Positions 12,217 to 46,699 of a DNA stretch of 64,000 nt are shown in pieces. Below the pieces are notes generated by a model that searched no databases, was not told the origin of the DNA, and saw only the letters and a list, made by a program, of their open reading frames with translations. How positions within the stretch are numbered: the first letter of the stretch is position 1; each line of letters begins with the position of its first letter. The position numbers and the translations under genes are program-made. Origin of the DNA: an uncultured Thermoplasmata archaeon (GTDB taxonomy: Archaea; Thermoplasmatota; Thermoplasmata; Lutacidiplasmatales; UBA184). Where the stretch lies: the NCBI GenBank assembly GCA_963715645.1, contig OY970259.1, forward strand, positions 71,841-135,840. The letters run 5' to 3'.

Positions 12217-14077
12217 ATGCGCTCGGTCGAGCGGTTGGAAGGTCTGGCTCTCGTCGGCCGGGCGACCCTCGGTGGGCTTTCGCTCCCCCTACCGGGCCTC
12301 TTGGAGAGCCGGACCGAGGCAGCGGAGCCCCCGGGCCTCTCGCTCCGTTCGGTCGAGGCGCCGCTCGCCCAGCGTCACCTTCGCATCTCCGACGGCACCT
12401 CGACGCTCGACATCGAATTCCCGGTCCCGTCTCCCGAGGTGGTGGGGCCCCCGGGGGGAGTGGTCCTCGCCGGTCCGGGGACGCTCCTCGTCCGCCCTCC
12501 CTTTCCCCCCACCTCCCCGGCCCCGGGCCGGTTCGCGCGCCCGAGCTCCTGGTCTGGGGCAATGCCCGCGCCCTCTGGGCGGAGGGACTTCCGTTCATCC
12601 AGGCCCTCCGGGAACTGCGCACGACGTTCGGGGCCGGCCCGGTGCTGTGGGCCCCGCGGGTCGCCCTGCCCCACCGCATCCCGCTGCTCTGCTATCTCGG
12701 AGTGGAGCTGACCGACTCCACCGAGGGACAGATCGCCGCCGCCCGGGGCGAGGACCCTCGACCCCACCCTCGGCGTGACCGACCGCACCGTCGCGCGAGC
12801 GGAGGGACGCTGCCGTTGTGCGGCGTGCACCGCCGAGCCGCCGGGTTCGCTCGAGGCCCATACCGCCGAGGCCTACCGGGAGGCGCTCGCCGAGACCCGG
12901 ACGGCCGCCCGGACCGCCGCTCCGGGAGCTTGTCGAGTCGCGGCTCGCGGCCGAGCCGGCGTTGGCCGAGCTGCTCCGGTACGCGGACCGGGAGCTAGCC
13001 GGGCTCCTCGAAGAGCGGACGCCGGTCACCGGGAGTGGGTCCCATACCTACGTCCTCCTCGAGTCCCACCGTCGGCCGGAGATGGTCCGGTTCCGCCGAC
13101 GCCTAAGGGAACGTTACGCTCCCCCACCGTCCAAGTCGGTCCTCCTCCTGGTCCCGTGCTCTCGAACGAAGCCGTACCGCTTCTCCCGGAGCCATCGCCG
13201 CTTCGCGAGCGCTCTCGAAGGGCTCTCTCCCCTCGAGCGCGTCCACCTCGTCTCCGTGAGCTCGCCGATCGGGCTCGTTCCGCGGGAGCTCGAGGACGTG
13301 CCTCCCGCCCGCCACTACGACATCCCGGTCACCGGCGACTGGGAAGAGCGGGAACGGACGGTGGTGATCGAGGGCCTCCGTCACTTCGCGGTCTCGGGTC
13401 ACTACCGGTCGGCCGTCGTCCATCTCGACCCCGAAGAGTACCGGTTCCTGCGAGACGCCTGGCCCGTCGGGCTGCCGGCGCGGTGGACCCTCTCCGGCGA
13501 CCGCACGACCTCCCGGGAGGCCCTTGATGCCCTGCGGAGCGCGATAGGTGAGGCCCTCGCTGCGGAGCGGCCGGTTGCGGGAGGCCCGCTCGCGGTGGTC
13601 CGGGAGGAGCTGCACGAGGTCGCCGCGGTCCAGTTCGGCCGGAGCGCCGCGGACCGCCTCTTCACCGGACCCATCCGTCTCGCCGGACGCCCGTGGTTCC
13701 AGCGGCTGACCGACGGCCGCACGGACCTCGCGACCCTGCGGGAGGAGCGAGGGCTCTTCCACCTGACGGTCGCGGGCGCTCGTCGACTTTTCCCCGACCC
13801 CCCCCTATGGGTCGCCGTGGACCCGGCGCTGCCTCTGACCGGGGACCTGTTCGTGCCGGGCGTGCGCGCAGCGGATCCGGGAATCCGCGCCGGGGACTCG
13901 GTCCTCCTCCTCCGGGAAGGGGCCCTCGCGGGCGTGGGGGAGGCCGCGCTGCCCGGCCGCTTGATGGTCGAGCTGCGGCGCGGGGTTGCGGTCCGGGTGC
14001 GTCACCGGGAGCATGCGGCGACCGACACGCCCATCACCGAGCAAGGTCCTCCGTCGACACCAGGGCCGGTCGTCTAG
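12217..14077 (+). CDS. arcS: Archaeosine synthase ArcS-like protein (TGT-like N-domain, DUF5591-type core, C-terminal PUA), at least three frame breaks
   Basis: Pieces lie in four frames: ..VLWAPRVALPHRIPLLCYLGVELTDS (TGT-like), RCRCAAC zinc motif, LRELVESRL, LLLVPCSRTKPY (DUF5591 hallmark), and a PUA-like end GDSVLLL..GVGEAALPG. Breaks near 12505-12540, 12745-12755 and 12905-12920. GGGAGAGG lies 8 nt before ATG 12217. Confidence 0.6.
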
Positions 14078-14135
14078 GGGTGAGGACGCCGCGCTTACAA
14101 CGCGGAGATTGGCGGTTCGAATCCGCCCCGGCCCA
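14063..14135 (+). tRNA. tRNA-Val (anticodon TAC)
   Basis: Hand-folded cloverleaf: acceptor GGGCCGG/CCGGCCC, D arm GTCT-AGGGGTGA-GGAC, anticodon arm CCGCG-CTTACAA-CGCGG, T arm GGCGG-TTCGAAT-CCGCC, discriminator A. No encoded CCA. Confidence 0.9.
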
Positions 14136-14146
14136 CTCGACCGACG
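14132..14146 (+). repeat. Direct repeat copy 1 (CCCACTCGACCGACG) overlapping the last 4 nt of tRNA-Val
   Basis: Exact 15-mer repeated at 14959-14973. Read directly from the sequence. Confidence 0.85.
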
Positions 14147-20698: not shown

Positions 20699-21757
20699 AT
20701 GACGAAGAAGGAGAGCCCCGGGCGGTCGACGCCCGCTGCCGCAGGGCCGGGGGTCCGGCGGCTCGCGCCACCCGACCCCAGGACGACCGAGAGGTTCGCG
20801 AACGAGAGGACCGAATCGACGGCGGCGCAGCGTTCACCCTGCACGTGGGTGCGGGGGACCTCCCCGAGCACCTCTTTCGCCGGCTGCTCGGCGCCTACCT
20901 CGCCGGGGCCCGGGAGTTCGTGATCCGGGAACGCACGACGTCGTCCTCCCAGACCCGAGAGGTCGTCCGGAGTTTCTGTCGACGCACGCGCCAGCCCGAA
21001 GTGGTCTCGGACGAGGGCGGCGTCCTCCGGCTCCAGGACCTGGCCTTCGAGAGCCCGGTCTCGCTGGACCGACGGCTCGACCGGATGGGCCATCTCGTCG
21101 TGGACTTTCATCGCGAGGCGGTCGCCTCCTGGCAGGGCCTTCCCCTCGGGGAGGATGGCTACTGGGAACACCGGGACGACGGAGATCGACCGGGAGGCCT
21201 GGTACATTCAGCGGGTCGCCTCGCTCCGCCTGGCGGCGGACCGGCCCCCCCCGAGCCTCCTCGCCGCGTGGACGGTCGCTCGCAGCCTCGAACGGATCGC
21301 GGACCATGCGGTGCTCCTCGGCACGGTGGGCCCCCGGCTCGTTGCGCTCCCCAACGGCCTCGGACCTGCGACCCCTCTGCGGCAGTTCCACGCCCAGGCG
21401 ATGGAACATCTGGAAGGGGTCCTCGGGGCTAGCGACCCGGACGTCGCGAACGGCCTCCTCGACACCGGGGAGGCGCTGATCGGCTCCGGCACCACGCTCG
21501 CAGACCGGCTGCTGCCCGGGGTGGGCAACGGCTCCATGCCGCCCGCTACCGCGGCCGCGGTCGCCCGGCTCCTGGAGTCGATCGGGCGTACAATCGCCTA
21601 CGCCCAGGACATTGCCCAGGTCGTCCTGGACCGCCCCGGGCCCTGGCTCCGCCCTTCGAGTCCGGCCACTTCCCTCCGGTCGCTCCCCTCCCGGGGCCTC
21701 GGAACCGAGCGGAGCGACCGCTCGCGAGAGCGTTTAGTCACCCCGTTCGTTCCGTGA
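20699..21757 (+). CDS. phoU: PhoU-family phosphate regulator homologue (archaeal type), at least two frame breaks, N-terminus unresolved
   Basis: ..AFTLHVGAGDLPEHLFRRLLGAYLAGAREFVIRE.. and ..EIDREAWYIQRVASL..VARSLERIADHA..IGRTIAYAQDIAQ (two PhoU repeats). ATG 20699 is in a different frame from the first repeat (break about 20760-20800). Second break about 21170-21185. Confidence 0.65.
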
Positions 21758-21772
21758 CCCGGGAGCCCCCGC

Positions 21773-22297
21773 ATGCCCTCGATGCCCCACGGCGTCCGCC
21801 TCGTGGTCGTCCGTCACGGCCCGGCCACCGAGCGGGACCCCGTTCGGTGGCCGGACGATGCCCGACGGCCCCTGACCCCCGAAGGGGCGGCCCAGACCCG
21901 CAGGGCGGCCAAAGGGCTCGCTCGCTACGTGGGGAAGGTCGACCGGCTGGTGACGAGCGGGGCCGTCCGCTGTCGGGCCACGGCCCAACTCCTCCGGCTC
22001 GCCCTCAAGGACCCGCCGGGCGTCGAGGTCTGGAGAGAGCTCGGTCCCGGCCAGCTCGCGCCTCCCATCCTGACTCGCCTTGCCCGCACGGCCCGCTCGG
22101 GTCAGCAGGTCCTGGTCGTCGGCCACGACCCTACGCTCACCGAGCTGCTGGGCATCGCCCTCATCGGGGAGGGGACCCCGTTCGTGCGAATGGGAAAGGG
22201 GGCCGCGGTCTGCCTCGAGTTCCCGCGGGGGGTTCGTCCCGGGGCCGGCGTGCTCCGCTGGCTGGCTACCCGGAAGCAGCTTTCCCGGGCGGGATAG
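21773..22297 (+). CDS. Histidine-phosphatase superfamily protein (SixA-like phosphohistidine phosphatase)
   Basis: 174-aa ORF. LVVVRHGPA (RHG motif) and VLVVGHDPTL (second catalytic His region). Its size matches SixA. Confidence 0.65.
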   Translation: MPSMPHGVRLVVVRHGPATERDPVRWPDDARRPLTPEGAAQTRRAAKGLARYVGKVDRLVTSGAVRCRATAQLLRLALKDPPGVEVWRELGPGQLAPPILTRLARTARSGQQVLVVGHDPTLTELLGIALIGEGTPFVRMGKGAAVCLEFPRGVRPGAGVLRWLATRKQLSRAG

Positions 22298-23030
22298 CGG
22301 CCGGCGTCACCTTCGGGGCTCTGGGGAACCGGACCCGACGGCGACCGGGCCGGTAGAGCGGCTCGACCAGCGCTCGTACGTCGACGTCGACCTGCTCCGG
22401 GTGACGGTTCGCGTCGACGAAATGGAAGCCGTAATCGCGGGCCATCCACTCGAACTCGGCGGCCAGCTTCTCCTGGTACAGGAAGAAGCTCTCGAAGAGG
22501 TCGCGGGAGAGCGAGAGGTCCATCCCCGACTCCCAGTAGTCGAGGCTCCCGTACTTTCCGATCGCCCGGTGGAGGAGGATATCGGGACGCGCGTCGAGGA
22601 AGAGGACCAGGTCCGGGACGAAGGCGAACCCGTAGAGGCGGCGCGCCCAGTCCCGGGAGGCACCCCGGACGATCGCCCGGGCCATGAGAGTGTAGATGTA
22701 CCGGTCGGCGAGCACCGTGCTTCCCGCCGAGAGCGCCGGGACGATCTTGTTCTCGAGCTGGTCGCCGAAGTCCGCCGCGTAGAGGAGCGCCATCGTGGTC
22801 GCTCCGAGCGTGTGGCCCTGCTTGGCCCGGTCGATCTCCTCGCTCACGAGCGTGGAGCGGCGGAGGCCGGTATCCACGACCGCGTGTCCCTGGATCTCGA
22901 GCCACTCTTTCAACAAGGCGACCTCGGTCGAGCGGCCCGAGCCGTCGGCTCCCTCGATGACGATGAGCCGGCCGATGAGCTTCTCCGAGGGCAGCCCCGG
23001 CAACGGGGTCCCGTACGTGCTAGAGGTCAT
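22266..23030 (-). CDS. Thymidylate-kinase-like P-loop protein B (Walker A Lys replaced by Arg)
   Basis: LIVIEGADGSGRST (GK[ST] becomes GRST), LADRYIYT (DRY motif), and an insertion YWESGMDLSLSRDL shared with the upstream paralogue. Its ATG overlaps the upstream stop by 11 nt. Confidence 0.7.
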   Translation of the reverse strand: MTSSTYGTPLPGLPSEKLIGRLIVIEGADGSGRSTEVALLKEWLEIQGHAVVDTGLRRSTLVSEEIDRAKQGHTLGATTMALLYAADFGDQLENKIVPALSAGSTVLADRYIYTLMARAIVRGASRDWARRLYGFAFVPDLVLFLDARPDILLHRAIGKYGSLDYWESGMDLSLSRDLFESFFLYQEKLAAEFEWMARDYGFHFVDANRHPEQVDVDVRALVEPLYRPGRRRVRFPRAPKVTPAAIPPGKAASG

Positions 23031-23721
23031 GCATCAACGTCTCCATCGTCGGAAAGCCGCTCAGGACCGGACGGACGATCGCCCGCAATTCGGTCTGGAT
23101 CGCCTCGACCGGACGGGTGGAATCGATGACCGTCATCCGGTCCTGGACCGAGATCCGGTCGTATTCGCGCTTCAGGCGGCCCTGGAAACGCTCGTAGCTG
23201 TCGTGCAGGTCGTCGGAGAGGCCCATGTCCATGCCGGCCTCGTAGTAGTTGATCTTGAGCCGGGAGGCGATCTTTCGCTGGAGGGTGACGCGGACCGGTA
23301 CGCGGAAGTAGAACGCAACGTCGGGGGTCGGGGCGAACGAGTAGATCATGCGGACCCACCCCGGGTCGCACCCCCGGGCGGCGTCACGGACGAACGCGGT
23401 GAAGGAGTACCGGTCGCAGACGACCACGTAGCCGGCGCGGAGCGGCGGGAGGATCTTGCGGTCGAAGCGGTCGGCGAAGTCGGTCGCGTGCAGGAGCGAG
23501 AAGGTCGTCGGGGTCAGCAGGCCCTTCTTCTTGCCGCGACGAATGGTGTTCGAGACCAGCTCGGAAGAGTTCCACTCGGTCTGGAAGACGCGGTAGCCTT
23601 GGGCGGCCAGCCACTTGGCGAGCAGGGCGGCCTGGGTCGACTTTCCGCTGCCGTCGAGCCCCTCGAAGACGAACAGCCGACCCGGATACCCGTGCTTGGG
23701 CGAGGGAACCTCACGATTCAC
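23020..23721 (-). CDS. Thymidylate-kinase-like P-loop protein A (canonical Walker A)
   Basis: LFVFEGLDGSGKST, VCDRYSFT (DRY), insertion YYEAGMDMGLSDDL. Its GTG start lies 11 nt inside the end of the ppx ORF. Confidence 0.7.
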   Translation of the reverse strand: MNREVPSPKHGYPGRLFVFEGLDGSGKSTQAALLAKWLAAQGYRVFQTEWNSSELVSNTIRRGKKKGLLTPTTFSLLHATDFADRFDRKILPPLRAGYVVVCDRYSFTAFVRDAARGCDPGWVRMIYSFAPTPDVAFYFRVPVRVTLQRKIASRLKINYYEAGMDMGLSDDLHDSYERFQGRLKREYDRISVQDRMTVIDSTRPVEAIQTELRAIVRPVLSGFPTMETLMHDL

Positions 23722-25322
23722 GGACCCGGACCTCCACGTCGAACGCGCGCTCGAGGATCTTCGCGGCCTTCTCCCCCAGCTTGCCCGGCAGGGCGGTACC
23801 GGTCGGTGGAGAAAAGGCTAGGCCGACCGCGTGGCCGTCCCCGGAAGCCGAGAAGCGTGGGCGGAACCCGGCGACCAGTTCGGCCAGCCCCACGACCGCA
23901 CCGAGCTTACGGGCGAGGTCGAGGTCGTCCGTCGAAACGATCGGCTGGAACTCCTTCTTCCACTCCGAGGGGAGCGGTCCGCCCTCGTGGACATACGCGG
24001 CCATCGAAGCCAGCAGGATCTCCTCGTTGGTTCAGTCCGAGGATCGGGTAGTTCTGGATGAGGTAGGCCGAGTGACGAGCATGACGCCAGAGGTCGATGG
24101 CGGTCCCCGCGTCGTGCATCCCGCTCGCGACGCGGACGGCGAGCTCCTCGCTGGGCCCCCAGCGCTGCCGTTCGGCGAGCACCTGGAACAAGCCCATCGC
24201 GGCCTCCGTCACCTCCCGGCCATGCTCGACGTCGAAGCGGAACGACTCGGCGGCGGCGGCGACCGAGCGTTCGGCCAGCTCCACGGCCCGCGCGGGAAGC
24301 TTGGCTCCGACCGCCTCGAGCGCGATGCCCTCCCGGATACCGGTTCCGGAGACGTTGATCTGTTCGGCATGGGTCACCCGGAGGAGCTCCTGGAGGACGA
24401 CGATCCCCGCGAGCACTACGTCGGCGCGGTCGCTGCCGATGCCCGGGACCGCACGCCGCTTGTCGGCGGCCATCTCGCCCAGCAGTTCCCCGAGCGCCTC
24501 GACGTCGTGGTCGAACAGCGGGTAGCCGTGGACGCGACCAATCGGCCATTCCCGGAAATCGATGGCGGCGCGGGCCAGCGACCGGACCGTCCCCCCGACG
24601 GCGTAGACCCCGTGGGATTCCGAGCGGAACGCCTCGAAGGTGGAGTCCAAGGTCTCGCGGACGTGGTCCCGGAGCTCCTCCCATTCTCGCTTCTTCGGCG
24701 GGTCGTGCTCGAGGAACCGTTGACTCAGCCGAAGCACGCCGAGCGGCAGGCTCACCGAGTTCCGAAGAGCCCCTCGATGGACTTCGACCAGTTGGAGCGA
24801 CCCACCTCCGAGGTCGCAGACGATGTCGTTATGGAGCTCCCAGGCGCTCGCCACGCCGAGGTAGGCATACCGGGCCTCCTCGACACCCGAAATGGTGCGC
24901 AGGAGAAGGCCCGTGCTCCGTTCGACGGCGCGGACGAACTCGGCGCCGTTCGGGGCATCCCGCACGGCGCTGGTTGCGACCGCGAGGGTCCGCGGGACCT
25001 CGAGGGTCCGGACCAGCCGGGCGAACCGACGGAGGCCGGCCACTCCCCGCTGGACCGCCTCGTCCGACAGCCGGCCCTCGGGGTCCGTACCCAGCCCGAG
25101 CCGGGGGACTTCCTTGGCCTCGTAGACCGCACGGACGGTTCCGGCGTGCGAGGCTTCGAAGACCACGAAACGAGCCGTGTTCGACCCGACGTCGATCACG
25201 CCGAATCTGACGGCCCGACCGAGGGAGCGTTCGGTCGTCTCCCCGGCGCGTTTCCGCCGAGCGGGACCGCTCCACACCGGCGCATGGGGGCCGCCACTAT
25301 TACATGCTCGCCCGATGGGCAT
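23711..25322 (-). CDS. ppx: Ppx/GppA-family exopolyphosphatase, one frame break, start uncertain
   Basis: FGVIDVGSNTARFVVFE, AVATSAVRDA.NG, DLGGGSLQL (ASKHA phosphate loops) and a C-terminal HD-like region. The last ~95 aa (ILLASMAAYVHEGG..) lie in ORF 23711..24004 after a 1-nt insertion near 24030. ATG 25322 is the nearest upstream Met. Confidence 0.8.
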
Positions 25323-25374
25323 CGGAAAGGTATTACCCTCGTCCCCGGGTGTCCCCACCCCCTCCGAGTCGACC

Positions 25375-26259
25375 ATGTCTGCCCCCTCCCCCACGAAGAC
25401 CGAAACCGCTCCCGAGACCGTCGAGCTGGGGCGGGTGTTGGAGGCCCGAGTGGGCGAGACCCTGCGAGACGTGGACCGATTGGTCGAGAATCCCCATTCG
25501 AGCCCCGAAACGTTGCACCGACTCCACCGCGACCTTCGCCGACTCCGGGTCGGCCTGGGGGTATGGACGCGGGCTAGCTCCCGAGGGCGCCAGGCCGCCC
25601 TGCGAGCCTACGACCGTCGGCTCAAACGCCTCGCCCGTCTAGTCGGGGGCGTCCGCGACCGGGACGTCGCGCTTGCGCTCCTCGCCGACGCCCCCAAGGA
25701 CCTGCCCTCCCGGGAGCGCCGCGCGCTCCGACGCCTGCAGTCGCACCTGACCGATGACGCCCGCATCGGGAGGGAGCTCGTCCGCGCCTCGCTCCGGGCC
25801 GAACGGGACCTCGGACTGTTCGAGGGGATCCGGGCGGGCTTTCACACGCTCCCCTCGGCGCGCCGGGCCCAGGCCCTGGGACGCTACCTGGAGGAAGTTC
25901 ACCAAGAGGGTCAGGAGGCGGTCCGGGCGGCGCATCGCAAGGCGCGCCGGAAACCCACCTCCCGACGACTCCATCGGCTGCGGATCCGGGTCCGGAGCTG
26001 GCGGCACTTGTCCGACCTCGCCTCCGCCATCGACCCGAGCTATGGTCGACCCCAAGCTCGTCCCCTCCGCTCCCTGCAGGACCGCCTCGGACGCCTGCAC
26101 GACCTCGACGTCGTGGAGGACCTGACCGCGGCGTCCGCGCCTCCAACGTGGAATCGAGCGATCCGGAAGGAGCGGCGGCGGCAGCAGCTCAAGCTGGTGC
26201 GTTCGCTCCGATCGAGCCACTGGCGGGAGATGGTCCCGCCCGGGCTCGCCTCGGCATAG
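25375..26259 (+). CDS. CHAD-domain protein (polyphosphate-granule associated domain)
   Basis: All-helical, His/Arg-rich repeats LHRLHRDLRRLR, LHRLRIRVRSWRHL, LQDRLGRLHDLDV typical of CHAD. Divergent from ppx. Start taken at MSAPS (25375). Confidence 0.6.
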   Translation: MSAPSPTKTETAPETVELGRVLEARVGETLRDVDRLVENPHSSPETLHRLHRDLRRLRVGLGVWTRASSRGRQAALRAYDRRLKRLARLVGGVRDRDVALALLADAPKDLPSRERRALRRLQSHLTDDARIGRELVRASLRAERDLGLFEGIRAGFHTLPSARRAQALGRYLEEVHQEGQEAVRAAHRKARRKPTSRRLHRLRIRVRSWRHLSDLASAIDPSYGRPQARPLRSLQDRLGRLHDLDVVEDLTAASAPPTWNRAIRKERRRQQLKLVRSLRSSHWREMVPPGLASA

Positions 26260-26602
26260 ACGGGGAGCCGCCCCCGTCGGCGGAGGACGAGATCCGGGAC
26301 ATCGCCCCGAGGCCACGGGACGGCGCCGCAGCGAGCTCCTCGCCCAGGGTCGGGGGCTCCGATTACGGGTGTGCGGTGGTGCGGGGCGGCCCCTCGCTCG
26401 AGCATCGAGCTGGGCAACTTCGAGCCAACCTCCTGACGACGCAGGGGTCCGGCCGCCCCGACCGCGTCTCCCCGCGCGCGCGATGCGAGACCCTCGACGA
26501 ACGCGCGCGGGTCGTTCCCGGTGTCGAGGGGGTCTGCTCCCCTGCGGGTGGATGCAAACCCTTAACGGAGGTTGCCCCGGTTTCCCGTCCGCGGAGTTCG
26601 AC

Positions 26603-27350
26603 ATGTCCCCTCGCGAGCCGGACCCAAAGTACCTCGAGCCGTTGCTCGGGGTCGTTTTCGACCTCGACGGGACGCTCGTGCTCTCCCACCACGATTTCGT
26701 GCGAATGCGACAGAACCTGATCCGGATCGCCGAGAAGTACGGGGTCGTTCCGGGTCACCTGTCCCTCGACGACCCGATCCACCGGACCGTCGAGAAAGCC
26801 CGCGAGGAACTGCGGACCACCGGCGCCGGACGGGAACGTCTTCCGGTTCGAGGCCGAATACCACAAGACGATCGACGCGATCGAGATGGAAGCGCTCCCA
26901 CGGACCGTCGTGCGTCCGGGCGCCGCGCCCCTGCTGAAGGCGCTCACCGACCGGGGGTTCCGGACCGGAGTGCTCACGCGCAGCTCCGAGGCGTTCGCCC
27001 GAGGAGCCCTCCTGCGCACCGGGCTGGCGCCCTTCTTCTCTTACCTCCGAACCCGCAGCACCCCCGGGCCCGCGAAGCCATCGCCGGAGTCGCTGCTCGC
27101 GCTCCTGCGAGAGATGGAGGTCCCAATCGACCGGGCGGTGTTCGTCGGGGACCACCTGATCGACGCGGAATGCGCGACCGCCGCCCGGGTTCGCTTCTAC
27201 GCGGTGCTTCCCGACCCCTCCGAGGCGACCGGGTCGACCCAGAGCGAGGCGCGGTTCCTCGCAGGCGGAGCGGCGGCGGTCGCCAAGGACCTCCCGACGC
27301 TCGCCCGTCAGCTGGACGTCACCCTCCCCCGGACCCTTACCTCGCGGTAG
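26603..27350 (+). CDS. HAD-superfamily phosphatase (phosphoglycolate-phosphatase-like), one frame break
   Basis: VVFDLDGTLV (motif I), GVLTRSS (motif II), VFVGDHLIDAE (motif IV). Break at gg 26828-26829; removing one g gives ..TTGADGNVFRFEAEYH... Confidence 0.7.
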
Positions 27351-27359
27351 ACGAGGGCC

Positions 27360-28355
27360 TTACAGGTAGTCGGCGTAGGCATGGATCACGGCCCGCTCGG
27401 CGGTCGCCCACGCCTCCGGGATCTGGTTCCATCCGTTCCGCTGGTCGCCCACGCAGTAGAGGCCGGGGATTGGCCTCCCCGTCGTCTCCGAGAGCGCCCG
27501 GCAATCCTCGTCGGTCACGACAAAGCCTTCCGCGTCGAACCGACACCCGAGCGCGCGGGGGATCTCCTGGTGGAGGTCGTACCATCCGAGGGCGCTGAAC
27601 CCCCGGTCGTAGGACCGGTGGCTTCCGTCGGCGAACCTCACGCCGAAACGCTGCTCACGGATCTCGTCGAAACCGACGACCGCCGGTTCGACGGCCGTAA
27701 TGTGAGCCTCGGCGAGCGCGGCCCGCAGGCTGGTCGCCTCGAGCTCCGACGCTCCCTCGAGCAGCGGGTGGCCGTGGGTGAGCATCTCCACTGACGAGGG
27801 ATGAAAGTGCAGCAGGTCGAGTGCGGTGCGGGCGGCGAACGGGTCGTGTCCTAGCACCGCCACGCTCTTTCCTCCCAGCGTGTGCCCGTCGCACAGGATG
27901 CAGAACTCGACCAGGGCCTGGTTGGCCCAGGGGAAGATCGGTTTGATCTCGCCTCCGATCTCGAGCATGCGGTCGACCACCCCCATCGCCAGGACGACCG
28001 CGCGGCCTCGGGCGACCAGGCTCTGCTTCAGCCATTCGAACGGGACGCGGTAACCGCCTTCCGTCGCCTCGACGCGGAGGGCGGTGGCCGGGGAGAAGTA
28101 GCTCACCCACTCGCCGACCTTCCGCACGGCCTCGACCTGACGGTCGAGCAGGACGTGGCCCGAGACCCCCTCGGGGAAGCCCGGAATGTTGTCCATGACC
28201 GGAGCGTAGAAGGAGCGGCTGAACTTCGGCCCTCGGTCGATCAGGGCTGCGGAGTGCTCGAGCAGCGCGGCCTTGAGGGCGGCCTGGAGCCCGGCATGGC
28301 CTCCGCCGACCACGACGAGGTCGTACGACTCCTTCAGCCGTGGGAAGCCCGGCAC
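27360..28355 (-). CDS. Thioredoxin-reductase-like FAD/NAD(P) oxidoreductase
   Basis: YDLVVVGGGHAGLQAA (FAD GxGxxG), redox-type CILCDG (compare CATCDG of TrxR), VAVLGHD second dinucleotide fold, and C-terminal GLYCVGD. Confidence 0.65.
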   Translation of the reverse strand: MPGFPRLKESYDLVVVGGGHAGLQAALKAALLEHSAALIDRGPKFSRSFYAPVMDNIPGFPEGVSGHVLLDRQVEAVRKVGEWVSYFSPATALRVEATEGGYRVPFEWLKQSLVARGRAVVLAMGVVDRMLEIGGEIKPIFPWANQALVEFCILCDGHTLGGKSVAVLGHDPFAARTALDLLHFHPSSVEMLTHGHPLLEGASELEATSLRAALAEAHITAVEPAVVGFDEIREQRFGVRFADGSHRSYDRGFSALGWYDLHQEIPRALGCRFDAEGFVVTDEDCRALSETTGRPIPGLYCVGDQRNGWNQIPEAWATAERAVIHAYADYL

Positions 28356-28536: not shown

Positions 28537-29892
28537 TCAATCTCTCCGACCTGAGGGGTCCCGGCCGAGCCGGTCGGCTACCGTAGCGAGGATCTCGAGG
28601 TGGCGGTCGACGTCGGCCGCGGTGTGCTGGACCGAGAGGGTCCACTGCTCGTCGGGCCCCGTGCCCGAGGGGATCAACCCCCGGTTGAGGCAGAGGTAGT
28701 AGTACAGCATCGAGCGGTCGCCGTCGACCGTCAGGAAGTCCCGCCAGTTCCGCACCGGGTGGTCCGCGAAGTAGACGGTCCCCGAGACTCCGTCCGCGCA
28801 GACGTTGGCCGTGACCCCGGCGTCGTCGAAGACCTCGGCATACCCCTTGGCAAGGCGGTCGTTGAGCCGCGTCGAGCGTTCGATCCCTTCCTCCGTGAGG
28901 ATGTGCTCGAGCGACGCGAGGCACGCCGTCATCGCGAGCGGGTTCGAATTGTAGGTGCCCGCGTGGGCGACCTTCCTCGGGCCTACCTCGTCGAGGATGC
29001 CGGGTCCGGCAGCGATCGCGGAGAGCGGAACCCCGCAGGCGATCGACTTGCCGAGCGTGATCAGGTCCGGTCGCACCCCGACCCGCCCCGCCCCTCCGTG
29101 CACGTACTTCGCCCCGGTCTTGATCTCGTCGAGGATCAGCAGCGCCCCGAGCGCGTCGCAGAGTTCCCGCAAGCCGGGGAAGAACCCCTCGTCCGGAAGA
29201 ATGAACCCCATGTTCATCGGGATCGGCTCCGCGATGATCGCCGCCAGGTCGTCCTTGTGCTCCCGCGCGATCCGGCGCGTGGCCTCCAGGTCGTTGAAGG
29301 GGGCGACGAGGGTCCGCTCGCTCACTTCGCTCAGGATCCCGGGGGACGCCGGTGCCGAGGCCGGATGCTCCTTCGGCCCCGCCACCTCGGCCCGGGGCTT
29401 GACCCCGACCAGCAGCGTGTCGTGCGAGCCGTGGTAGCAGCCTTCGAACTTGAGAATGTACCGCTTCTTGGTGTAGGCCCGCGCGAACCGGGTCGCGTGG
29501 TGCGTCGCTTCGAGGCCGGTCGTGCTGAAGCGGACCTTCTCCATGCCGTAGCGCCGGCACACCCGTTCGGCGACCTCGGGGGTTCGTTCCCATTCGTAGC
29601 CGTACACGCTCCCACGCTCGAGCTGTCGGGAGAGCGCCTCCACGAGTTTCGGATGGGCATGGCCGCTCTGGAGCGACCCGAAGGCCATGTTGAAGTCGAG
29701 GTACTCGTTCCCGTCAGCGTCCCAGAGGCTCACCCCTTTGGCGCGCTGGACGTAGAACGGGTACGGCTCCAGGAAGCGGTAGTTGGAGTGGACCCCGAGC
29801 GGGCTCCACCGGCGGCCCATCTCCCACAGCTCCTGGGAGCGCGGGGTCCGGACCGCGTACTCCGCGAAAGCTTCCTTGAACCGTGGATCCAT
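28537..29892 (-). CDS. Class-III (PLP) aminotransferase, glutamate-1-semialdehyde-aminomutase-like
   Basis: DADGNEYLDFNMAFGSLQSGHAHP, FSTTGLEATHHA, LILDEIKTG, LITLGKSIACG (PLP Lys). Start at MDPRFKE (29892) inside ORF 28537..30147. Confidence 0.8.
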   Translation of the reverse strand: MDPRFKEAFAEYAVRTPRSQELWEMGRRWSPLGVHSNYRFLEPYPFYVQRAKGVSLWDADGNEYLDFNMAFGSLQSGHAHPKLVEALSRQLERGSVYGYEWERTPEVAERVCRRYGMEKVRFSTTGLEATHHATRFARAYTKKRYILKFEGCYHGSHDTLLVGVKPRAEVAGPKEHPASAPASPGILSEVSERTLVAPFNDLEATRRIAREHKDDLAAIIAEPIPMNMGFILPDEGFFPGLRELCDALGALLILDEIKTGAKYVHGGAGRVGVRPDLITLGKSIACGVPLSAIAAGPGILDEVGPRKVAHAGTYNSNPLAMTACLASLEHILTEEGIERSTRLNDRLAKGYAEVFDDAGVTANVCADGVSGTVYFADHPVRNWRDFLTVDGDRSMLYYYLCLNRGLIPSGTGPDEQWTLSVQHTAADVDRHLEILATVADRLGRDPSGRRD

Positions 29893-30048
29893 GTCCTTGT
29901 CCTCCCCCGGCAAGGCCCTCCGGCCCCGCCGACGGGGCTCTGAGGGGGAAGGGTTACAAAAGTCCCCCCGGGGAATGGGAGATTCGTCAATTGTCGGACC
30001 CCTCCCCGCGAGCGTCATTACCCGGAGCGGTTCGGGGGACGGGAGTCC

Positions 30049-31497
30049 GTGGGCGGGGTCATCGATCTCGAGAACTTCGTAGCGGGAGAGTGGGTCCGCC
30101 CCCTCGGACCTGGGCGTCTCGACGTCCCCGACCCCTCCGACGGCCATCTGCTGGCCCGGGTGCCTCGCACCGAAGCGGCGGAGGTCGATGTTGCCGTACG
30201 AGCCGCTCGGAAGGCGTTCCCCACGTGGCGGGACGTCCCCGTCGCCGAACGCGCCCGCCGGATCCTGGCCCTGCGGACGCTGTTGGAGGAGCAGGCGGAG
30301 GAGCTCGCGACGAGCATCTCCCGCGAGAACGGAAAGACGCTGGACGAGGCCCGAGGCTCGGTTCGGAGAGGCATGGAGGCCACCGAGTTCGCCGCCTCCG
30401 CCCCCACGACCCTCCAGGGGGCGTTCCTCGAGGACGTCTCCCGAGGGGTGGACACGACCCTGATCCGTCAGCCCCTCGGGGTGGTCGTCGGGATCACCCC
30501 GTTCAACTTTCCGCTCATGATCCCGCTCTGGATGGGGCCGCTCGCCCTCGTCTGCGGCAACTCGTTCATCCTGAAGCCCTCCGAGCGGGTCCCGCTCTCC
30601 GCGACGTTGCTCACCCGGCTCATCGCAAGGGCGGGCTTCCCGCCCGGGACCTTCACCCTACTCCACGGGGATGCCACCACGGTCGACGCGCTCCTCAGCC
30701 ACCCGGAGGTGGATGCCGTCTCCTTCGTCGGCTCCGCGCCCACCGCCCGGCACGTCTACACGACGGCCGCTTCCCACGGTAAGCGAGTCCAGGCGCTCGC
30801 CGGGGCGAAGAACCACCTGCTCGTGATGTCCGATGCCGACCTCGACCGCACGGTGCCTGCGGTCATCTCGAGCGCCTTCGGCCAGGCGGGAGAGCGGTGC
30901 CTCGCCGGTAGCGTCGTCGTCGCGGTCGGACCCGGGGCGGATCGGCTCGTTGACCGCCTGGCGGAGGCTGTGCGGAAGCTCCCGGTCGGACCGAGCGGCG
31001 ACCCGGCGACCGTGGTGGGACCGGTGATCCGCGCCGAGCACCGGGACCGGGTGCTCCAATGGATTAGGGACGGCGAGGCGGGCGGAGCCGTGGTCGTGGC
31101 CCGCGGGTCGATCCCGACCGGCTCCGACGGCTTCTACGTCGCCCCCGTCCTCTTCGACCGAGTACGACCGGAGATGTCGATCGCCCAGGAGGAGGTCTTC
31201 GGCCCGGTGCTCGCCGTGGTCCGCGTGGGCACGCTGACTGAGGGGATCGAGCTCGCGAACCGCTCCCGGTTCGGCAACGCGGCGGCGATCTTCACGCGGG
31301 ATGGCGGCGCCGCGCGCGCCTTCGTCCACGGGATCGAAGCCGGCATGGTCGGGGTCAACGTGGGAGTGCCGGCGCCGGCGGCTTACTTCCCGTTCGTCGG
31401 CTGGAAGGGCTCGTTCTACGGGGACCTGCACGCGAGCGGGCGGGACGCGGTGGACTTCTACACGCGGAAGAAGGTCGTCACGAGCCGCTGGTTCTAA
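30049..31497 (+). CDS. mmsA: CoA-acylating methylmalonate/malonate-semialdehyde dehydrogenase
   Basis: ALDH core (ITPFNFPLMIP, FILKPSERVP, GERCLA catalytic Cys) plus the MMSDH-type C-terminus FPFVGWKGSFYGDLHASGRDAVDFYTRKKVVTSRWF. Intact. Confidence 0.75.
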   Translation: MGGVIDLENFVAGEWVRPLGPGRLDVPDPSDGHLLARVPRTEAAEVDVAVRAARKAFPTWRDVPVAERARRILALRTLLEEQAEELATSISRENGKTLDEARGSVRRGMEATEFAASAPTTLQGAFLEDVSRGVDTTLIRQPLGVVVGITPFNFPLMIPLWMGPLALVCGNSFILKPSERVPLSATLLTRLIARAGFPPGTFTLLHGDATTVDALLSHPEVDAVSFVGSAPTARHVYTTAASHGKRVQALAGAKNHLLVMSDADLDRTVPAVISSAFGQAGERCLAGSVVVAVGPGADRLVDRLAEAVRKLPVGPSGDPATVVGPVIRAEHRDRVLQWIRDGEAGGAVVVARGSIPTGSDGFYVAPVLFDRVRPEMSIAQEEVFGPVLAVVRVGTLTEGIELANRSRFGNAAAIFTRDGGAARAFVHGIEAGMVGVNVGVPAPAAYFPFVGWKGSFYGDLHASGRDAVDFYTRKKVVTSRWF

Positions 31498-31503
31498 CCT
31501 CGG

Positions 31504-32880
31504 TCAGGGCGGGGTTCCGCCGCGGACCTCGGCGTCGGCCACGGCGAGCGCCCGGTCGAGGACGTCCAGTCCATGGTCGAGCTCCTCCCGCGTCACGATC
31601 AGGGGCGGGGCGATCACGAGGTGCGAGACCCACGCGACGCAGAACACTCCCTCCTTCATCATCGCCGCGGCCACCTGTTCGGCGACCAGGGGGCGCCCGG
31701 CGAGCTTGTCCTCCTCGGTGTTGAAGGGGAGACGGGTCGCACGGTCCCGGACGAGCTCGACGGCCGCGAAGAGGCCGAGCCCGCGGACCTCGCCGACCGA
31801 CGGATGTCGCGCTTCGATCTCCCGAAGGCGGCGGAGCAGGTACTCGCCGTCCCGGCGGGACTTCGCGAGGAGGTCGAGGCGACGGTACTCTCCGATCGCC
31901 GCCACGGCGGGGGCGAGCGTGAGCGGGTGGGCCTCGTAGGTGTGCCCGTGGGGGAAGTAGCGGTCCCGGAAGACGTCGTGGAGGGAGGAGGTCGTGGCGG
32001 TCAGCCCGAGAGGGATGTGCGCGCCCGTGATCCCCTTCGCGGTCGTGAGGAGGTCCGGCTCGACCTTCCAGTGGTCGACCGCGAACCACTCGCCGACCCG
32101 GCCCCAGCCGGTCATCACCTCGTCGGCGATGAGGAGGACGCTGTGCCGGCGGGTGATCTCGCGGATCCGCGGGAGATACTCCGGCACCGGTACGATCACT
32201 CCGTTCGTGCCGACCACCGGCTCGAGGATCATCGCCGCGACGTTGCCCTCCCGTTCGAGTTGCCGGTCGACGTAGTCGGCGCAGGCGACCCCGCAGGAGG
32301 GGTACGTGAGCCCGAACGGACAGCGGTAGCAGTAACAGTCGGGCGCAAAGACGGTCCCAGGAACCGTCTGGAGGCCTTCGACCGGACGTCGTCGAGGGTC
32401 GCCGGTCACGGAGATCGACGCGGCGGTGGCACCGTGGTAGGATCGGTAGCGGGAAAGGACCTTGGTCCGTCCCGTCGCGACGCGGGCGATCTTGAGCGCG
32501 GCCTCGTTGGCTTCGGTCCCCGAGGTGCTGAAGAAGAACCGGTTCAGGCCGTGCGGTAGGACCTGGAGAAGGGCCGAGCTCAGGTGGGCGCGGGCCTCGG
32601 TGGCGAATCCTGGCGCCGCGTAGGAGAGCACGCGCGCCTGGGCTGCGATCGCTTCGACGACCGCCGCGTTCGCATGGCCGAGGTTGGTGGCCATCAGCTG
32701 GGAGGAGAAGTCGAGGTAGGCGCGGCCCTTGTCGTCCCAGAACGTTGAGTCTTTGGCCCGGGTCACCACCAGCGGGTTCCATCCGCCTTGGCGCCGCCAG
32801 GTAACGTAGTTCGTTTCCCGCACGACCTGGCGAATGGCATCCCCGTCCACCGAGGGGGCCTTGGGGTCAGGGTCGGTCAT
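31504..32880 (-). CDS. Class-III omega-aminotransferase (beta-alanine/taurine:pyruvate type)
   Basis: FSTSGTEANEAALK, LIADEVMTGWGRVG, LLTTAKGITG (PLP Lys), HGHTYEAHP. Start at MTDPDPK (32880). Confidence 0.8.
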   Translation of the reverse strand: MTDPDPKAPSVDGDAIRQVVRETNYVTWRRQGGWNPLVVTRAKDSTFWDDKGRAYLDFSSQLMATNLGHANAAVVEAIAAQARVLSYAAPGFATEARAHLSSALLQVLPHGLNRFFFSTSGTEANEAALKIARVATGRTKVLSRYRSYHGATAASISVTGDPRRRPVEGLQTVPGTVFAPDCYCYRCPFGLTYPSCGVACADYVDRQLEREGNVAAMILEPVVGTNGVIVPVPEYLPRIREITRRHSVLLIADEVMTGWGRVGEWFAVDHWKVEPDLLTTAKGITGAHIPLGLTATTSSLHDVFRDRYFPHGHTYEAHPLTLAPAVAAIGEYRRLDLLAKSRRDGEYLLRRLREIEARHPSVGEVRGLGLFAAVELVRDRATRLPFNTEEDKLAGRPLVAEQVAAAMMKEGVFCVAWVSHLVIAPPLIVTREELDHGLDVLDRALAVADAEVRGGTPP

Positions 32881-33763
32881 GTCCGGTCCGAGAGCGTCGC
32901 CCTTTAAGACGGTCGTCCGCCGGCCTCGTCGATGCGAACAGGCGGCCGGCGTTGCCGCCGAGGATGGCCGCTCGGTCCTCCTCGGAGATCTCGAGGCCTT
33001 GGACGAGCGCGACGGACGTGGCCAGGGACTCGAGGGGCCAGTCCGACCCGTACAGGATGCGGGCCGCGGAACCGATGGTGTCGACGGCGGCCTGCAGTAC
33101 CGCCCGGGCGCGGGCGACCCCCCGCTCGAAGTAAGGGGTCGTGGGATGGGCCAGGAGGCCGGAGGTGTCCGCGTAGACGTTCTCGTTCTTGTAGACCAGC
33201 TCCGCGGCTTCCTCCACCCAGGGGTTCCCAAAGTGGCAGAGGACGAATCGGACGTCACGGTGACGCACCGCGACCTCGTCGACCTCAATCGGTCGCGCGA
33301 ACTTGAGGAGGCCGTTCGGCGCGAGGGTGTCGCCCTGGTGGATCATCACCGGGAGGCGATGCCGTGCGGCGTACTGGTACACGGGTTCGAGGGCGGGGTC
33401 GTGCGGGTAGAAGGGATGGTACCCCGGGAAGAGCTTGATCGCGGCGAGGTCCGGAACTGCCTCCCAACCCGCCACCACGGCCTCCACGGACTCGCGCCCG
33501 GGATTGGGAAAAGCGGTGGCGACCGGCCGCAGACGACCTCCACTGGCGTGCGCGTGCTCCACCGATTCCCGGAGCGACTCGGCGGGGGTGGGGCCCTCGT
33601 AGACGGGGAGGAGGAGGCCGGAGGTGATGCCCGCCGCATCCATCTCCGCCAGGAGCCCGCGGACGGTGTAGTCGAGGTCCGCACGGTAGCCGGTCCGGGG
33701 CAGGTCCGGCCACCAGCGCGAGAGGTGCAGGTGGACGTCGACGGTCGGGGGGGCCTCGGGCAT
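32867..33763 (-). CDS. Amidohydrolase-2 family metal-dependent hydrolase (TIM barrel)
   Basis: VDVHLHLS (HxH), MIHQGD, VLCHFGNPW, YGSDWP motifs. Its 3' end overlaps the downstream aminotransferase start by 14 nt. Confidence 0.7.
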   Translation of the reverse strand: MPEAPPTVDVHLHLSRWWPDLPRTGYRADLDYTVRGLLAEMDAAGITSGLLLPVYEGPTPAESLRESVEHAHASGGRLRPVATAFPNPGRESVEAVVAGWEAVPDLAAIKLFPGYHPFYPHDPALEPVYQYAARHRLPVMIHQGDTLAPNGLLKFARPIEVDEVAVRHRDVRFVLCHFGNPWVEEAAELVYKNENVYADTSGLLAHPTTPYFERGVARARAVLQAAVDTIGSAARILYGSDWPLESLATSVALVQGLEISEEDRAAILGGNAGRLFASTRPADDRLKGRRSRTGHDRP

Positions 33764-33860
33764 CTCCTCTACGCGGGAGAGAGCCGAGGGGGGTCCATAA
33801 CCCGTCCGGTGGTCGTCCTAGCTCTGATATGGGCCTGTTCCCGTAACCCGGGGGGGTTGG

Positions 33861-35372
33861 ATGAGCGACACTTCGGAGTCCGGCAGCTACCTCGACGCGC
33901 CCAAAATTGTCCACCCGCCGCCCGGCCCGCGTTCCCGGGAGCTGCTGGCCGAGCAGGCAAAATGGGAGACCGACGCGGTCTCCTACTCGCACTACTTCCC
34001 CATGGCGATCCGGTCAGCGCGCGGCGCGACGGTCGAGGACGTCGACGGCAATCGGTACATCGACTGGGTGGCGGGCATCTCGGTGCTCAACCTGGGCCAT
34101 CAGCACCCGAGGCTCGTGGCCGCGCTCGCGGGGCAGAGCCGGGAGCTCTGGCACTCCCTGGAACTCCCCACGGAGGCCCGGATTCGATTCCTCAAGGAAC
34201 TGGAGGACGCGCTCCCCGGTAGCCTCCGGAACCACGCGAGGATCTTCTTCACCGTGACCGGCGGGGATGCGGTCGAGACCGCCGTCCAGCTCGCGGACTT
34301 TGCCAAGGGCCGCCACGGCACGATCGCGTTCTCCGGCGCCTACCACGGCGTCCACGGGGGGGCCGTCCACCTGACCAGCGGGAGCCGCTACCACACGACG
34401 ACGCCCTTCGCCGGGAGCCACGTCGTTCGGGTGCCCTACCCGGACCCGTACCGCCCGGTCCTGGGGGCGGACGCCGGAGCGGCGGGAACGATCGCCTATC
34501 TCGAGCACCTCGTGAACGACCCGGCCTCGGGCGCGGACAAGGTCTCGGCGGTCCTGGTCGAGCCAATCCTTGGCGAGGGCGGCTACGTCGTGCCGCCGGA
34601 CGATTTCCTGCCCTCGTTGCGCGAGTTCTGCAACCGCCACGACCTTCTCCTGATCGCCGACGAGATCCAGACCGGGCTCGGACGGACCGGCCGGATGTGG
34701 GCCGTCGAGCATGCCGGGGTCACGCCGGACATCCTGTGCATCGCGAAAACGATCGGGGGCGGCATCCCCCTCTCGGTCGTGGCGTACCGCAAGGACCTGG
34801 TCCCCGAGCTCCCGCGCGGGTTCCACATCGGGACCTACCGGGGGAATCCGCTCGCGCTCGCGGTCGGGACCGAAGTGCTCCGGGTCCTTCGAGAGGGCGA
34901 CCTCCTCCACCACACTGCCCATCGAGGCGCCGCGCTGGTGGAGCGGTTCCGGGCCATGGGAGAGCGCCATCCTTCGATCGGGAACGTTCGTGGCAAGGGG
35001 TTCATGATCGGGGTGGAGTTCGTCCAGAACCGGGCGACCCGCCTCCCGTGGGGGGACCGGGCGAAGGCGATGCGCTCGGCCCTGTTCGCGCGCGGGGTGC
35101 TCATGCACACCGCCGGCGCGTGGGACCAGGTGCTCCGGTTCATGGCCCCGCTGGTTATCGAGAACGAGCTCCTGGAGCGGGGCCTCGCCGCCTTCGAGGA
35201 TTCGCTCGACTCCCTGGACGGTACGGGGGAGAATCCCCCCATCCGCTCCGTCCCCCACGCGCCAACCGCCACGGGGTGGCGGCCCATCGGGGACCCCGGA
35301 CTCGGTCATCCCGGCCCGCCCGCAACGCCGGGCCCCTACCCGATCACGGGAACCGACGAAGAGACGCGGTAA
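33861..35372 (+). CDS. Class-III aminotransferase, 4-aminobutyrate (GabT)-like
   Basis: DVDGNRYIDWVAGISVLNLGHQHP, FTVTGGDAVETA, EPILGEGG, LIADEIQTGLGRTG, ILCIAKTIGGG (PLP Lys). Intact, with a Pro-rich tail. Confidence 0.8.
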   Translation: MSDTSESGSYLDAPKIVHPPPGPRSRELLAEQAKWETDAVSYSHYFPMAIRSARGATVEDVDGNRYIDWVAGISVLNLGHQHPRLVAALAGQSRELWHSLELPTEARIRFLKELEDALPGSLRNHARIFFTVTGGDAVETAVQLADFAKGRHGTIAFSGAYHGVHGGAVHLTSGSRYHTTTPFAGSHVVRVPYPDPYRPVLGADAGAAGTIAYLEHLVNDPASGADKVSAVLVEPILGEGGYVVPPDDFLPSLREFCNRHDLLLIADEIQTGLGRTGRMWAVEHAGVTPDILCIAKTIGGGIPLSVVAYRKDLVPELPRGFHIGTYRGNPLALAVGTEVLRVLREGDLLHHTAHRGAALVERFRAMGERHPSIGNVRGKGFMIGVEFVQNRATRLPWGDRAKAMRSALFARGVLMHTAGAWDQVLRFMAPLVIENELLERGLAAFEDSLDSLDGTGENPPIRSVPHAPTATGWRPIGDPGLGHPGPPATPGPYPITGTDEETR

Positions 35373-35379
35373 CCGGCCC

Positions 35380-36871: not shown

Positions 36872-36878
36872 GTGGCGA

Positions 36879-38370: not shown

Positions 38371-38512
38371 GGACGCCCCCCGTAGGGGCAAAACCCGGAC
38401 CGGCTCAATAGCGTGCCGCAGGGGACCCGCCGCGTCCCGCGACGTTGTATCATGGTATACCTTATCAGGGAGGAGTCGGTCCTACGCCTCGCCCTTTCGG
38501 GGGGGCGGTTCG

Positions 38513-40440: not shown

Positions 40441-40467
40441 CGGCCCGCCGAGGGCAGGGACCCTAGG

Positions 40468-46506: not shown

Positions 46507-46537
46507 ATCGAGGTGCGAACTTGCGACCCGGTGGTGG

Positions 46538-46547
46538 CTATATATAG
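46538..46547 (-). promoter_or_regulatory. Palindromic TATA box CTATATATAG 32-41 nt upstream of ATG 46506
   Basis: Sole AT-rich decamer immediately upstream of the extended aminotransferase ORF. It supports use of the long N-terminal form. Confidence 0.45.
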
Positions 46548-46675
46548 ATGGCTGGGGAGCTGAACAGGATTTAGGTTTCTCAATCCGAAGCGAACGGTGC
46601 TACAGAGCGAGCATTAGGTGGTCGAAATACTGCAATTATGTGGTGGTGTTCTGCTCCAAACGACCGAAAGCGCTC

Positions 46676-46682
46676 AAAAAAA
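46676..46682 (-). terminator. Oligo-T (T7 on the minus strand) archaeal-type terminator after the saccharopine-dehydrogenase-like gene
   Basis: A7 on the plus strand, 18 nt downstream of the stop at 46700-46702. Oligo-T tracts are the known archaeal termination signal. Confidence 0.45.
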
Positions 46683-46699
46683 CCTATCCAAGCCTCCTG

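Follow-up and report, generated by a model that had tools for sequence, protein, structure and literature searches.

A predicted PPK3-type heteromeric polyphosphate kinase locus linked to ppx in a Thermoplasmata archaeon

The stretch of DNA analysed here, 64 kb of contig OY970259.1 from an uncultured Thermoplasmata archaeon (assembly GCA_963715645.1; hereafter the window), carries two overlapping genes of the thymidylate kinase (dTMP kinase) fold, which we call A and B, directly downstream of ppx, the gene for an exopolyphosphatase. The initial annotation of this DNA proposed that A and B form a heteromeric polyphosphate (polyP) kinase pair, and noted that an enzyme of this type, encoded beside ppx, had been reported for Sulfolobus acidocaldarius. 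The core of the locus lies entirely on the reverse strand and consists of the following genes and junctions (positions are those of the window; aa, amino acids; nt, nucleotides):

22266..23030, reverse strand: gene B, putative regulatory subunit of the rPPK3 type; 254 aa, ATG start, P-loop IEGADGSGRST.
23020..23030 (read 23030-23020), reverse strand: 11-nt overlap of the A stop and the B start, ATGACCTCTAG.
23020..23721, reverse strand: gene A, putative catalytic subunit of the cPPK3 type; 233 aa, GTG start, P-loop FEGLDGSGKST.
23711..23721 (read 23721-23711), reverse strand: 11-nt overlap of the ppx stop and the A start, GTGAATCGTGA.
23711..25275, reverse strand: ppx, exopolyphosphatase (Ppx-GppA plus domain III), lying in three frames, with 1-nt insertions at 25204/25205 and 24024.

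That report is by Höfmann et al. (J Biol Chem 2026; PMC12995831; preprint 10.1101/2024.08.28.610084), who described Saci_2019 (cPPK3) and Saci_2020 (rPPK3) of S. acidocaldarius as the subunits of a heteromeric polyphosphate kinase (PPK), named PPK3, and placed the PPK3 family within the dTMP kinase superfamily. Both subunits were formerly annotated as dTMP kinases, and they are encoded in an operon of the order sixA-ppx-cPPK3-rPPK3-CHAD. Saci_2019 is reported to have PPK and not dTMP kinase activity, the dTMP kinase being the separate Saci_0893, and the reaction of the S. acidocaldarius enzyme (SaPPK3) is reversible, strongly favouring the formation of ATP from polyP and ADP. Saci_2020 is inactive alone and stimulates Saci_2019, the heteromer being of the alpha2beta2 type; its inactivity was ascribed to replacement of the arginine of the DRX motif, and the residues that putatively line the polyP cleft are kept in cPPK3 but not in rPPK3. 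The same paper treats STK_15430 as a cPPK3 homologue (PMC12995831).

By homology and motif content, A is a cPPK3 orthologue. In phmmer searches of solved structures it matches STK_15430 (PDB 2plr/5h70) over its full length with E=1e-56, canonical thymidylate kinases (Tmks) reaching 2e-14 at best, and it is 46% identical to Saci_2019 (locus L084). A hidden Markov model (HMM) of the Sulfolobaceae cPPK3 gives A 217.9 bits and B 140.4. The protein carries the motifs GSGKST, TEWNSS, KKKGLLTP, DFADR and DRY, with K27 as the Walker A lysine and R104 as the DRX arginine, and keeps all 15 of the basic positions that are Lys or Arg in at least 90% of 29 c-type sequences. At E<=0.01 no match to the PPK2 domain (PF03976) was found in A or B, the only Pfam matches being those to PF02223 (Thymidylate_kin; E=6.7e-25 for A and 4.7e-20 for B) and weak generic P-loop matches. 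An insertion shared by A and B and absent from ordinary dTMP kinases had been claimed at the outset. Only part of this claim stands: the LID region is reworked in a PPK3-specific way, to Y[YW]E[AS]GMD, and some 10-15 residues are added downstream, which does not amount to a clean insertion. The Sulfolobaceae PPK3 proteins have another sequence at the position of the motif.

B is, on reciprocal profile scores and shared residues, an rPPK3 orthologue. Its best structural match is again STK_15430 (E=7e-37), with canonical dTMP kinases at 5e-12 at best. The Sulfolobaceae rPPK3 HMM scores B higher than A (117.8 versus 84.0 bits), and in the reverse direction the Sulfolobaceae rPPK3 proteins score about 50 bits more on a B-type than on an A-type HMM. 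B and rPPK3 have in common the derived, rPPK3-specific residues TG[LI]xxS, DQxEN, YxxTL and LD before the LID. Seven of the c-type basic residues are missing from B (K65Q, K66G, R85Q, R88N, R95S, R140D and R154Y in A numbering), which fits the published statement that the cleft residues are not conserved in rPPK3 (PMC12995831). The B reading frame, like that of A, is intact in the window. At its C-terminus (22266-22361) the protein has a 32-aa tail rich in Pro and Arg, EPLYRPGRRRVRFPRAPKVTPAAIPPGKAASG, of net charge +7. Similar tails of 28-32 aa occur in the Thermoplasmata B orthologues (median net charge +4), none is present in the Nitrosotalea orthologues, and the Sulfolobaceae rPPK3 proteins stop soon after the kinase domain. 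This tail might bind polyP or a partner protein.

A tree of A and B with the Sulfolobus pair and true Tmks, a step named in the initial annotation, gave concordant placements. It was built with our own numpy implementation of neighbour joining (NJ) on Kimura-corrected distances, from 60 sequences with 200 bootstraps and only two canonical Tmks as outgroups. PPK3 separates from the canonical dTMP kinases in 199 of 200 bootstraps. The c-type sequences, A among them, form one clade with the Sulfolobaceae cPPK3 in 199 of 200, and all B-type sequences join the Sulfolobaceae rPPK3 in an r-type clade in 126. Independent duplications in the Sulfolobaceae and in the lineage of the window were considered and rejected, the Sulfolobaceae c and r subunits never grouping together (0/200) and the reciprocal HMM scores also speaking against this history. 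Among the distant representatives is a 460-aa protein (P0242) that is a natural fusion of a c-type and an r-type domain, the second with a degenerate P-loop (DYSGHYQ), and its existence supports a physical association of the two subunit types. Among this and other long representatives (P0247, P0273, P0277, P0308 and P0354) are natural single chains with two PPK3-like domains, and in some very long proteins (1178-2575 aa) a single PPK3-like domain is embedded.

The pairing of A with B and with ppx was followed in 83 loci related to the window, to which the loci of S. acidocaldarius, S. tokodaii, S. solfataricus and M. sedula and one Nitrososphaera locus were added. The pair is present in 81 of the 83, the other two ending before B, and its order and overlap are strictly conserved across loci; the overlap measures 11 nt in most Thermoplasmata loci, and in Acidobacteriota and Nitrosotalea the two genes overlap by 4 nt or are separated by a small gap. 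The overlap of ppx with A also recurs in the relatives L001-L003, so that the chain of two 11-nt overlaps first described for ppx, A and B is present and shared with relatives. Each junction has a Shine-Dalgarno-like motif upstream, GGAGGT 9 nt 5' of the GTG of A and GGAG about 11 nt 5' of the ATG of B. The initial annotation had considered that relatives might lack the linkage to ppx or that the arginine of B's P-loop might not be conserved. PPX adjoins the pair in 57 of 58 Thermoplasmata loci, and the residue is Arg in 81 of 81 B orthologues from Thermoplasmata, Nitrososphaerota and Acidobacteriota.

Four further features surround the core:

20845..21757, forward strand: gene for a PhoU-domain protein, with a 1-nt insertion at about 21182 and an uncertain N-terminus.
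21773..22297, forward strand: SixA-like histidine phosphatase gene, convergent with B, the 3' ends overlapping by 32 nt.
25276..25374, no strand assigned: intergenic region between ppx and CHAD; two AT-rich boxes in it are conserved and are putative archaeal TATA elements.
25375..26259, forward strand: gene for a protein of the CHAD-domain family, which is associated with polyP granules; oriented divergently to ppx; PF05235, E=1.8e-20.

The SixA-like protein matches PF00300 (His_Phos_1) with E=7.6e-10 and scores 66.5 bits on TIGR00249 (sixA), below the cut-off of 74.5; its gene is found in 52 of the 58 Thermoplasmata loci. The CHAD protein is 84% identical to that of L001 (tblastn) and is present in 47 loci, and the PhoU-like gene, whose orthologues give weak matches to PF01895 (PhoU), in 41. 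Of the 58, 37 have the complete layout CHAD(-) PPX A B(+) SixA(-) PhoU(-), and most of the remaining loci lack outer genes only, often since the contig ends. In the intergenic region TAATAG/TATTAG precedes the ppx GTG at a distance of exactly 21 nt, and the other box, GGTATTAC/GGATTTAC, faces CHAD; both boxes and their spacing are conserved in relatives. The position of the first box suggests a leaderless ppx-A-B transcript, provided that it acts as a promoter.

From the orthology, motif content, synteny and conservation set out above, we infer that the locus is very probably an island for polyP and phosphate homeostasis, with a ppx-cPPK3-rPPK3 operon as its core in which A is the catalytic subunit and B a paralogous, non-catalytic activating partner. 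The first proposal of a heteromeric polyP kinase pair thus gains support from the reciprocal best matches to Saci_2019 and Saci_2020 and from the conserved SixA/PPX/CHAD neighbourhood. In this interpretation ppx, A and B would probably be transcribed from one promoter, and their translation would probably be coupled through the two overlaps and the Shine-Dalgarno-like motifs that precede them. A would be a P-loop enzyme of the dTMP kinase fold that transfers phosphate reversibly between ATP/ADP and polyP, and B, by analogy with Saci_2020, would activate it within a heteromer of the A2B2 type. By homology, the enzyme may serve mainly to regenerate ATP from polyP at low energy charge. The Ppx, CHAD, SixA-like and PhoU-like proteins, as far as their family assignments go, would complete the phosphate/polyP module.

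Four observations weigh against this interpretation. First, ppx as given is frameshifted twice. Second, B retains the DRX arginine (as DRY), the residue whose loss was invoked to explain rPPK3 inactivity in the published system (PMC12995831). Third, the monophyly of B with rPPK3 has only 63% NJ bootstrap support. Fourth, A scores 91.2 bits on TIGR00041, the dTMP kinase model, above its cut-off of 83.25. The fourth point is answered by Saci_2019, which scores even higher (105.8 bits) and was reported to be a PPK and not a dTMP kinase; TIGR00041 therefore does not discriminate PPK3 from Tmk.

The frameshifts in ppx could mean that the locus is decaying, the exopolyphosphatase having been lost while PPK3 was kept. 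In favour of this are the two uncompensated 1-nt insertions in ppx beside intact A and B. Of the open reading frames (ORFs) listed for ppx, one is 495 aa long and has its end at 23907; it is another, of 97 aa (23711-24004), that overlaps A. The linkage and the overlap first described are real, and the single open frame from 25322 to 23711 is not. Matches to PF02541 (E=1.8e-56) and PF21447 (domain III) identify the product. Orthologues in relatives are intact at 510-520 aa, and the 520-aa orthologue of L001 splits between two frames near 24024-24031 when aligned to the window (tblastn). At 24024 the window reads CGAGGAG and relatives CG-GGAG in DNA alignment; the extra base is missing from five fully aligned relatives and appears as a single gap in 15 of 15 relatives among the matches listed (the best 15 of 48). 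At 25204/25205 the window has ATTCGG against AT-CGG in all five aligned relatives. The start conserved in relatives is the GTG at 25275 (MERSRSAE...); the ATG at 25322 was rejected as a start, since relatives have in-frame stops there and the conserved GTG (MERSRS...) lies 47 nt downstream.

Decay is nevertheless unlikely. All three ppx segments have a high G+C content at third codon positions (0.81-0.84), and the two larger ones are 72-88% identical in amino-acid sequence to intact orthologues. Comparable breaks occur in unrelated neighbours and in distant genes: the PhoU-like gene has gained one nucleotide at 21182, its intact 339-aa orthologue from L001 splitting into frames 20752-21180 and 21089-21754 (tblastn), a HAD hydrolase gene has lost two at about 26825, and a class-III aminotransferase gene (about 45510) shifts frame beside a C7 homopolymer and is in frame again some 100 nt on. 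At a rate of about four indels per 6.6 kb, it is no surprise that the 1.46 kb of A and B contain none (p ~0.4, by our own estimate). Because similar isolated indels also break other genes of the window, the ppx breaks are probably errors of an error-prone assembly. A programmed frameshift in ppx was rejected as well, the extra bases being missing from the five aligned relatives and similar indels occurring in unrelated genes. Compared with aligned close relatives, isolated uncompensated 1-2-nt indels are dense across 20700-27400 and occur also at about 45510. Further frameshifts of the same kind are probably present in ubiD, which consists of two overlapping ORFs (9369-10866, forward strand), and in the aldehyde dehydrogenase (35336-37664, reverse strand) and isocitrate lyase (60336-61999, forward strand) genes, both of which give partial-domain fragments only.

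The conserved DRY of B bears on a different alternative, in which A is a stand-alone polyP kinase and B an independent enzyme or a polyP- or nucleotide-binding protein, possibly itself catalytic. B keeps four arginines that never vary in c-type subunits, R110 (of DRY), R118, R122 and R155, its orthologues are 67-89% identical across Thermoplasmata, indicating strong purifying selection, and the published explanation of inactivity, loss of the DRX arginine, does not fit it. We regard this alternative as decidedly unlikely. B is orthologous to Saci_2020, which is inactive alone and stimulates Saci_2019 (PMC12995831), the order and overlap of A and B are strictly conserved, and c-r fusion proteins exist. 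In addition, the P-loop position is never Lys in the 81 orthologues, being Arg and, rarely, Cys or Ser in distant representatives.

What, then, marks the regulatory subunit? DRY is found in B and in all 25 B-type sequences of the tree from outside the Sulfolobaceae, and DGY in the four Sulfolobaceae rPPK3 proteins; most B-type representatives among 60 listed have DR[YF]. Loss of the DRX arginine thus appears to be specific to the Sulfolobaceae and not to define the family. The contrast drawn at the outset between a canonical Walker A motif in A and a Lys-to-Arg change in B is borne out by the sequences, and outside the Sulfolobaceae this change is the family-wide mark of the regulatory subunit. 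Among the best 150 representatives at 50% identity the Walker A position is Arg in 77, Cys in 4, Ser in 1 and Lys in about 30, the last including c-type sequences. The Sulfolobaceae rPPK3 proteins themselves (L084-L087) are divided: those of S. acidocaldarius and S. solfataricus have Lys at this position, those of S. tokodaii and M. sedula Arg. In P-loop enzymes, exchange of the Walker A lysine for arginine usually keeps nucleotide binding and abolishes transfer. With DRY kept, the proposed inactivity of B would rest on this exchange and on the lost basic residues, and B may be a nucleotide-binding pseudo-kinase. The difference between Walker A exchange and DRX loss matters both for annotation rules and for work on the mechanism by which r activates c.

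With this in mind, one may speculate that in most PPK3s, that of the window included, the second subunit is no dead scaffold like that of Sulfolobus but a nucleotide-binding pseudo-kinase, with its DRY and LID arginines intact and under strong purifying selection, that senses the ATP/ADP ratio and sets the catalytic direction allosterically, and that PPK3 is the sole polyP kinase of Lutacidiplasmatales-like Thermoplasmata. We consider this extended model rather doubtful at present. If it holds, polyP energy buffering would become testable in an abundant uncultured order of soil archaea.

That A, B or both are genuine dTMP kinases, tandem duplicates lying beside ppx by chance, is extremely unlikely: PF02223 matches both proteins, TIGR00041 scores A above its cut-off and B (81.7 bits) just below it, and homologues are named 'dTMP kinase' in public sources, but Saci_2019 shares the high TIGR00041 score without being the dTMP kinase of its host (PMC12995831), for A and B alike the match to the cPPK3 structure exceeds that to any canonical Tmk by 25-40 orders of magnitude, the pair is tied to ppx almost throughout, and B is without the Walker A lysine.

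The enzyme type is already published, and the locus is, by homology, a further PPK3, from a phylum that neither the paper nor its preprint names in its main text. Both give the range of PPK3 as mainly Sulfolobaceae and Nitrososphaeraceae plus a few bacteria (PMC12995831); Thermoplasmata are not named in the two main texts, supplementary trees aside, and a literature search for PPK3 together with Thermoplasmata gave no match. The lineage of the window is archaeal and related to Ca. Lutacidiplasmatales (TMEG/UBA184). Its DNA has a G+C content of ~0.69-0.70, and the nearest homologues of A (95-78% identity) all come from metagenome-assembled genomes (MAGs) labelled 'Thermoplasmata archaeon'. In a genome scan 413 species-level genomes encode a cPPK3 relative, of which the best ~57 are Thermoplasmata, including UBA184 and AcS/SubAcS MAGs. 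These MAGs belong to Ca. Lutacidiplasmatales (TMEG), of ~69% G+C, and the paper describing them has no ppk or ppx entries in its text or supplements (PMC9287336). Our findings place PPK3 in Thermoplasmatota, with the same six-gene island in at least about 57 species-level Thermoplasmata genomes, and since relatives are carried by these and by 413 species-level genomes in all, the distribution of PPK3 is broader than 'narrow' or 'patchy' suggests. Among 52 ORFs scanned in the window, which has many more, none matched PPK1, PPK2 or another Tmk.

The name 'dTMP kinase' is attached to every database copy that we encountered, and a PPK3 model is missing from NCBIfam 20.0 (June 2026). Automatic pipelines will thus go on naming PPK3 catalytic subunits dTMP kinase, and because of this naming and of the missing model the capacity for polyP synthesis would be systematically missed in these soil archaea.

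Some genes elsewhere in the window deserve mention. An archaeosine-synthase-like ORF (ArcS-type; DUF5591, TGT_C2 and PUA; 12818-14077, forward strand), an archaeal marker, overlaps the start of a tRNA-Val gene (14063-14136) by a few bases. Glyoxylate-shunt genes are also present in this Thermoplasmata genome, namely malate synthase and, after it, a fragment of isocitrate lyase (59014-61999, forward strand). The regions 28537-37664 and 44850-47890 hold an unusual concentration of at least four class-III aminotransferases with aldehyde dehydrogenases, a saccharopine dehydrogenase and an amidohydrolase, and an oligopeptide ABC transporter (38279-43725) adjoins them; together these regions may be an island for amine and amino-acid catabolism.

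Compared with SaPPK3, the locus has the same adjacent, overlapping paralogues of the dTMP kinase fold directly downstream of ppx, c followed by r, with SixA and CHAD genes nearby. The catalytic subunits are alike in the P-loop, TEWNSS, KKKxLLTP, DRY and the basic residues, in keeping with their 46% identity. The regulatory subunits share TG[LI]xxS, DQxEN, YxxTL and LD before the LID, but B is only 28% identical to Saci_2020, has DRY where the Sulfolobaceae rPPK3 proteins have DGY, has Arg in the P-loop where Saci_2020 has Lys, and bears the basic Pro/Arg tail. The surroundings also differ: sixA and CHAD lie here on the opposite strand and not co-directionally with the core, a PhoU-like gene is added, and Ppx is a protein of ~520 aa with domain III, as against 411 aa in Sulfolobus. 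The host is a Thermoplasmata archaeon of mesophilic-soil type with ~70% G+C, and that of SaPPK3 a thermoacidophilic crenarchaeon.

The solved structure that both A and B match best, STK_15430 of Sulfurisphaera tokodaii (PDB 2plr/4nzy/4rzx/5h70), was deposited as a 'probable thymidylate kinase'; the crystallised protein is a homo-oligomer made up solely of the catalytic subunit. To our knowledge, no structure of an r subunit or of a PPK3 heteromer exists. The closest relatives outside Thermoplasmata are the PPK3 pairs of Nitrosotalea/Nitrososphaera and of Pyrinomonadaceae, to which A is 55-60% and B 48-63% identical. These pairs of Nitrososphaerota and Acidobacteriota have in common with the window the B-type GxGR[ST]T and DRY, the Y[YW]E[AS]GMD motif in the LID and the linkage to ppx. 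They differ in arrangement, with ppx and sixA upstream on the opposite strand in Nitrosotalea, ppx downstream in Acidobacteriota, and A and B either overlapping by 4 nt, not 11, or separated by a short gap.

Canonical Tmks (TIGR00041/PF02223) belong to the same fold and superfamily and have the P-loop, DRY and LID arginines, but are only ~32-33% identical, are without the basic cluster of K64-K66, R85, R88, R95, R140 and R154 (A numbering) and show no linkage to ppx. A more distant parallel is the two-domain class II PPK2 of P. aeruginosa (PA3455), in which an active P-loop kinase module is combined with a degenerate one that serves oligomerisation or activation (PMC12995831). It differs in belonging to another P-loop kinase family, in accordance with the missing PF03976 match here, in having its modules fused and in converting AMP to ADP.

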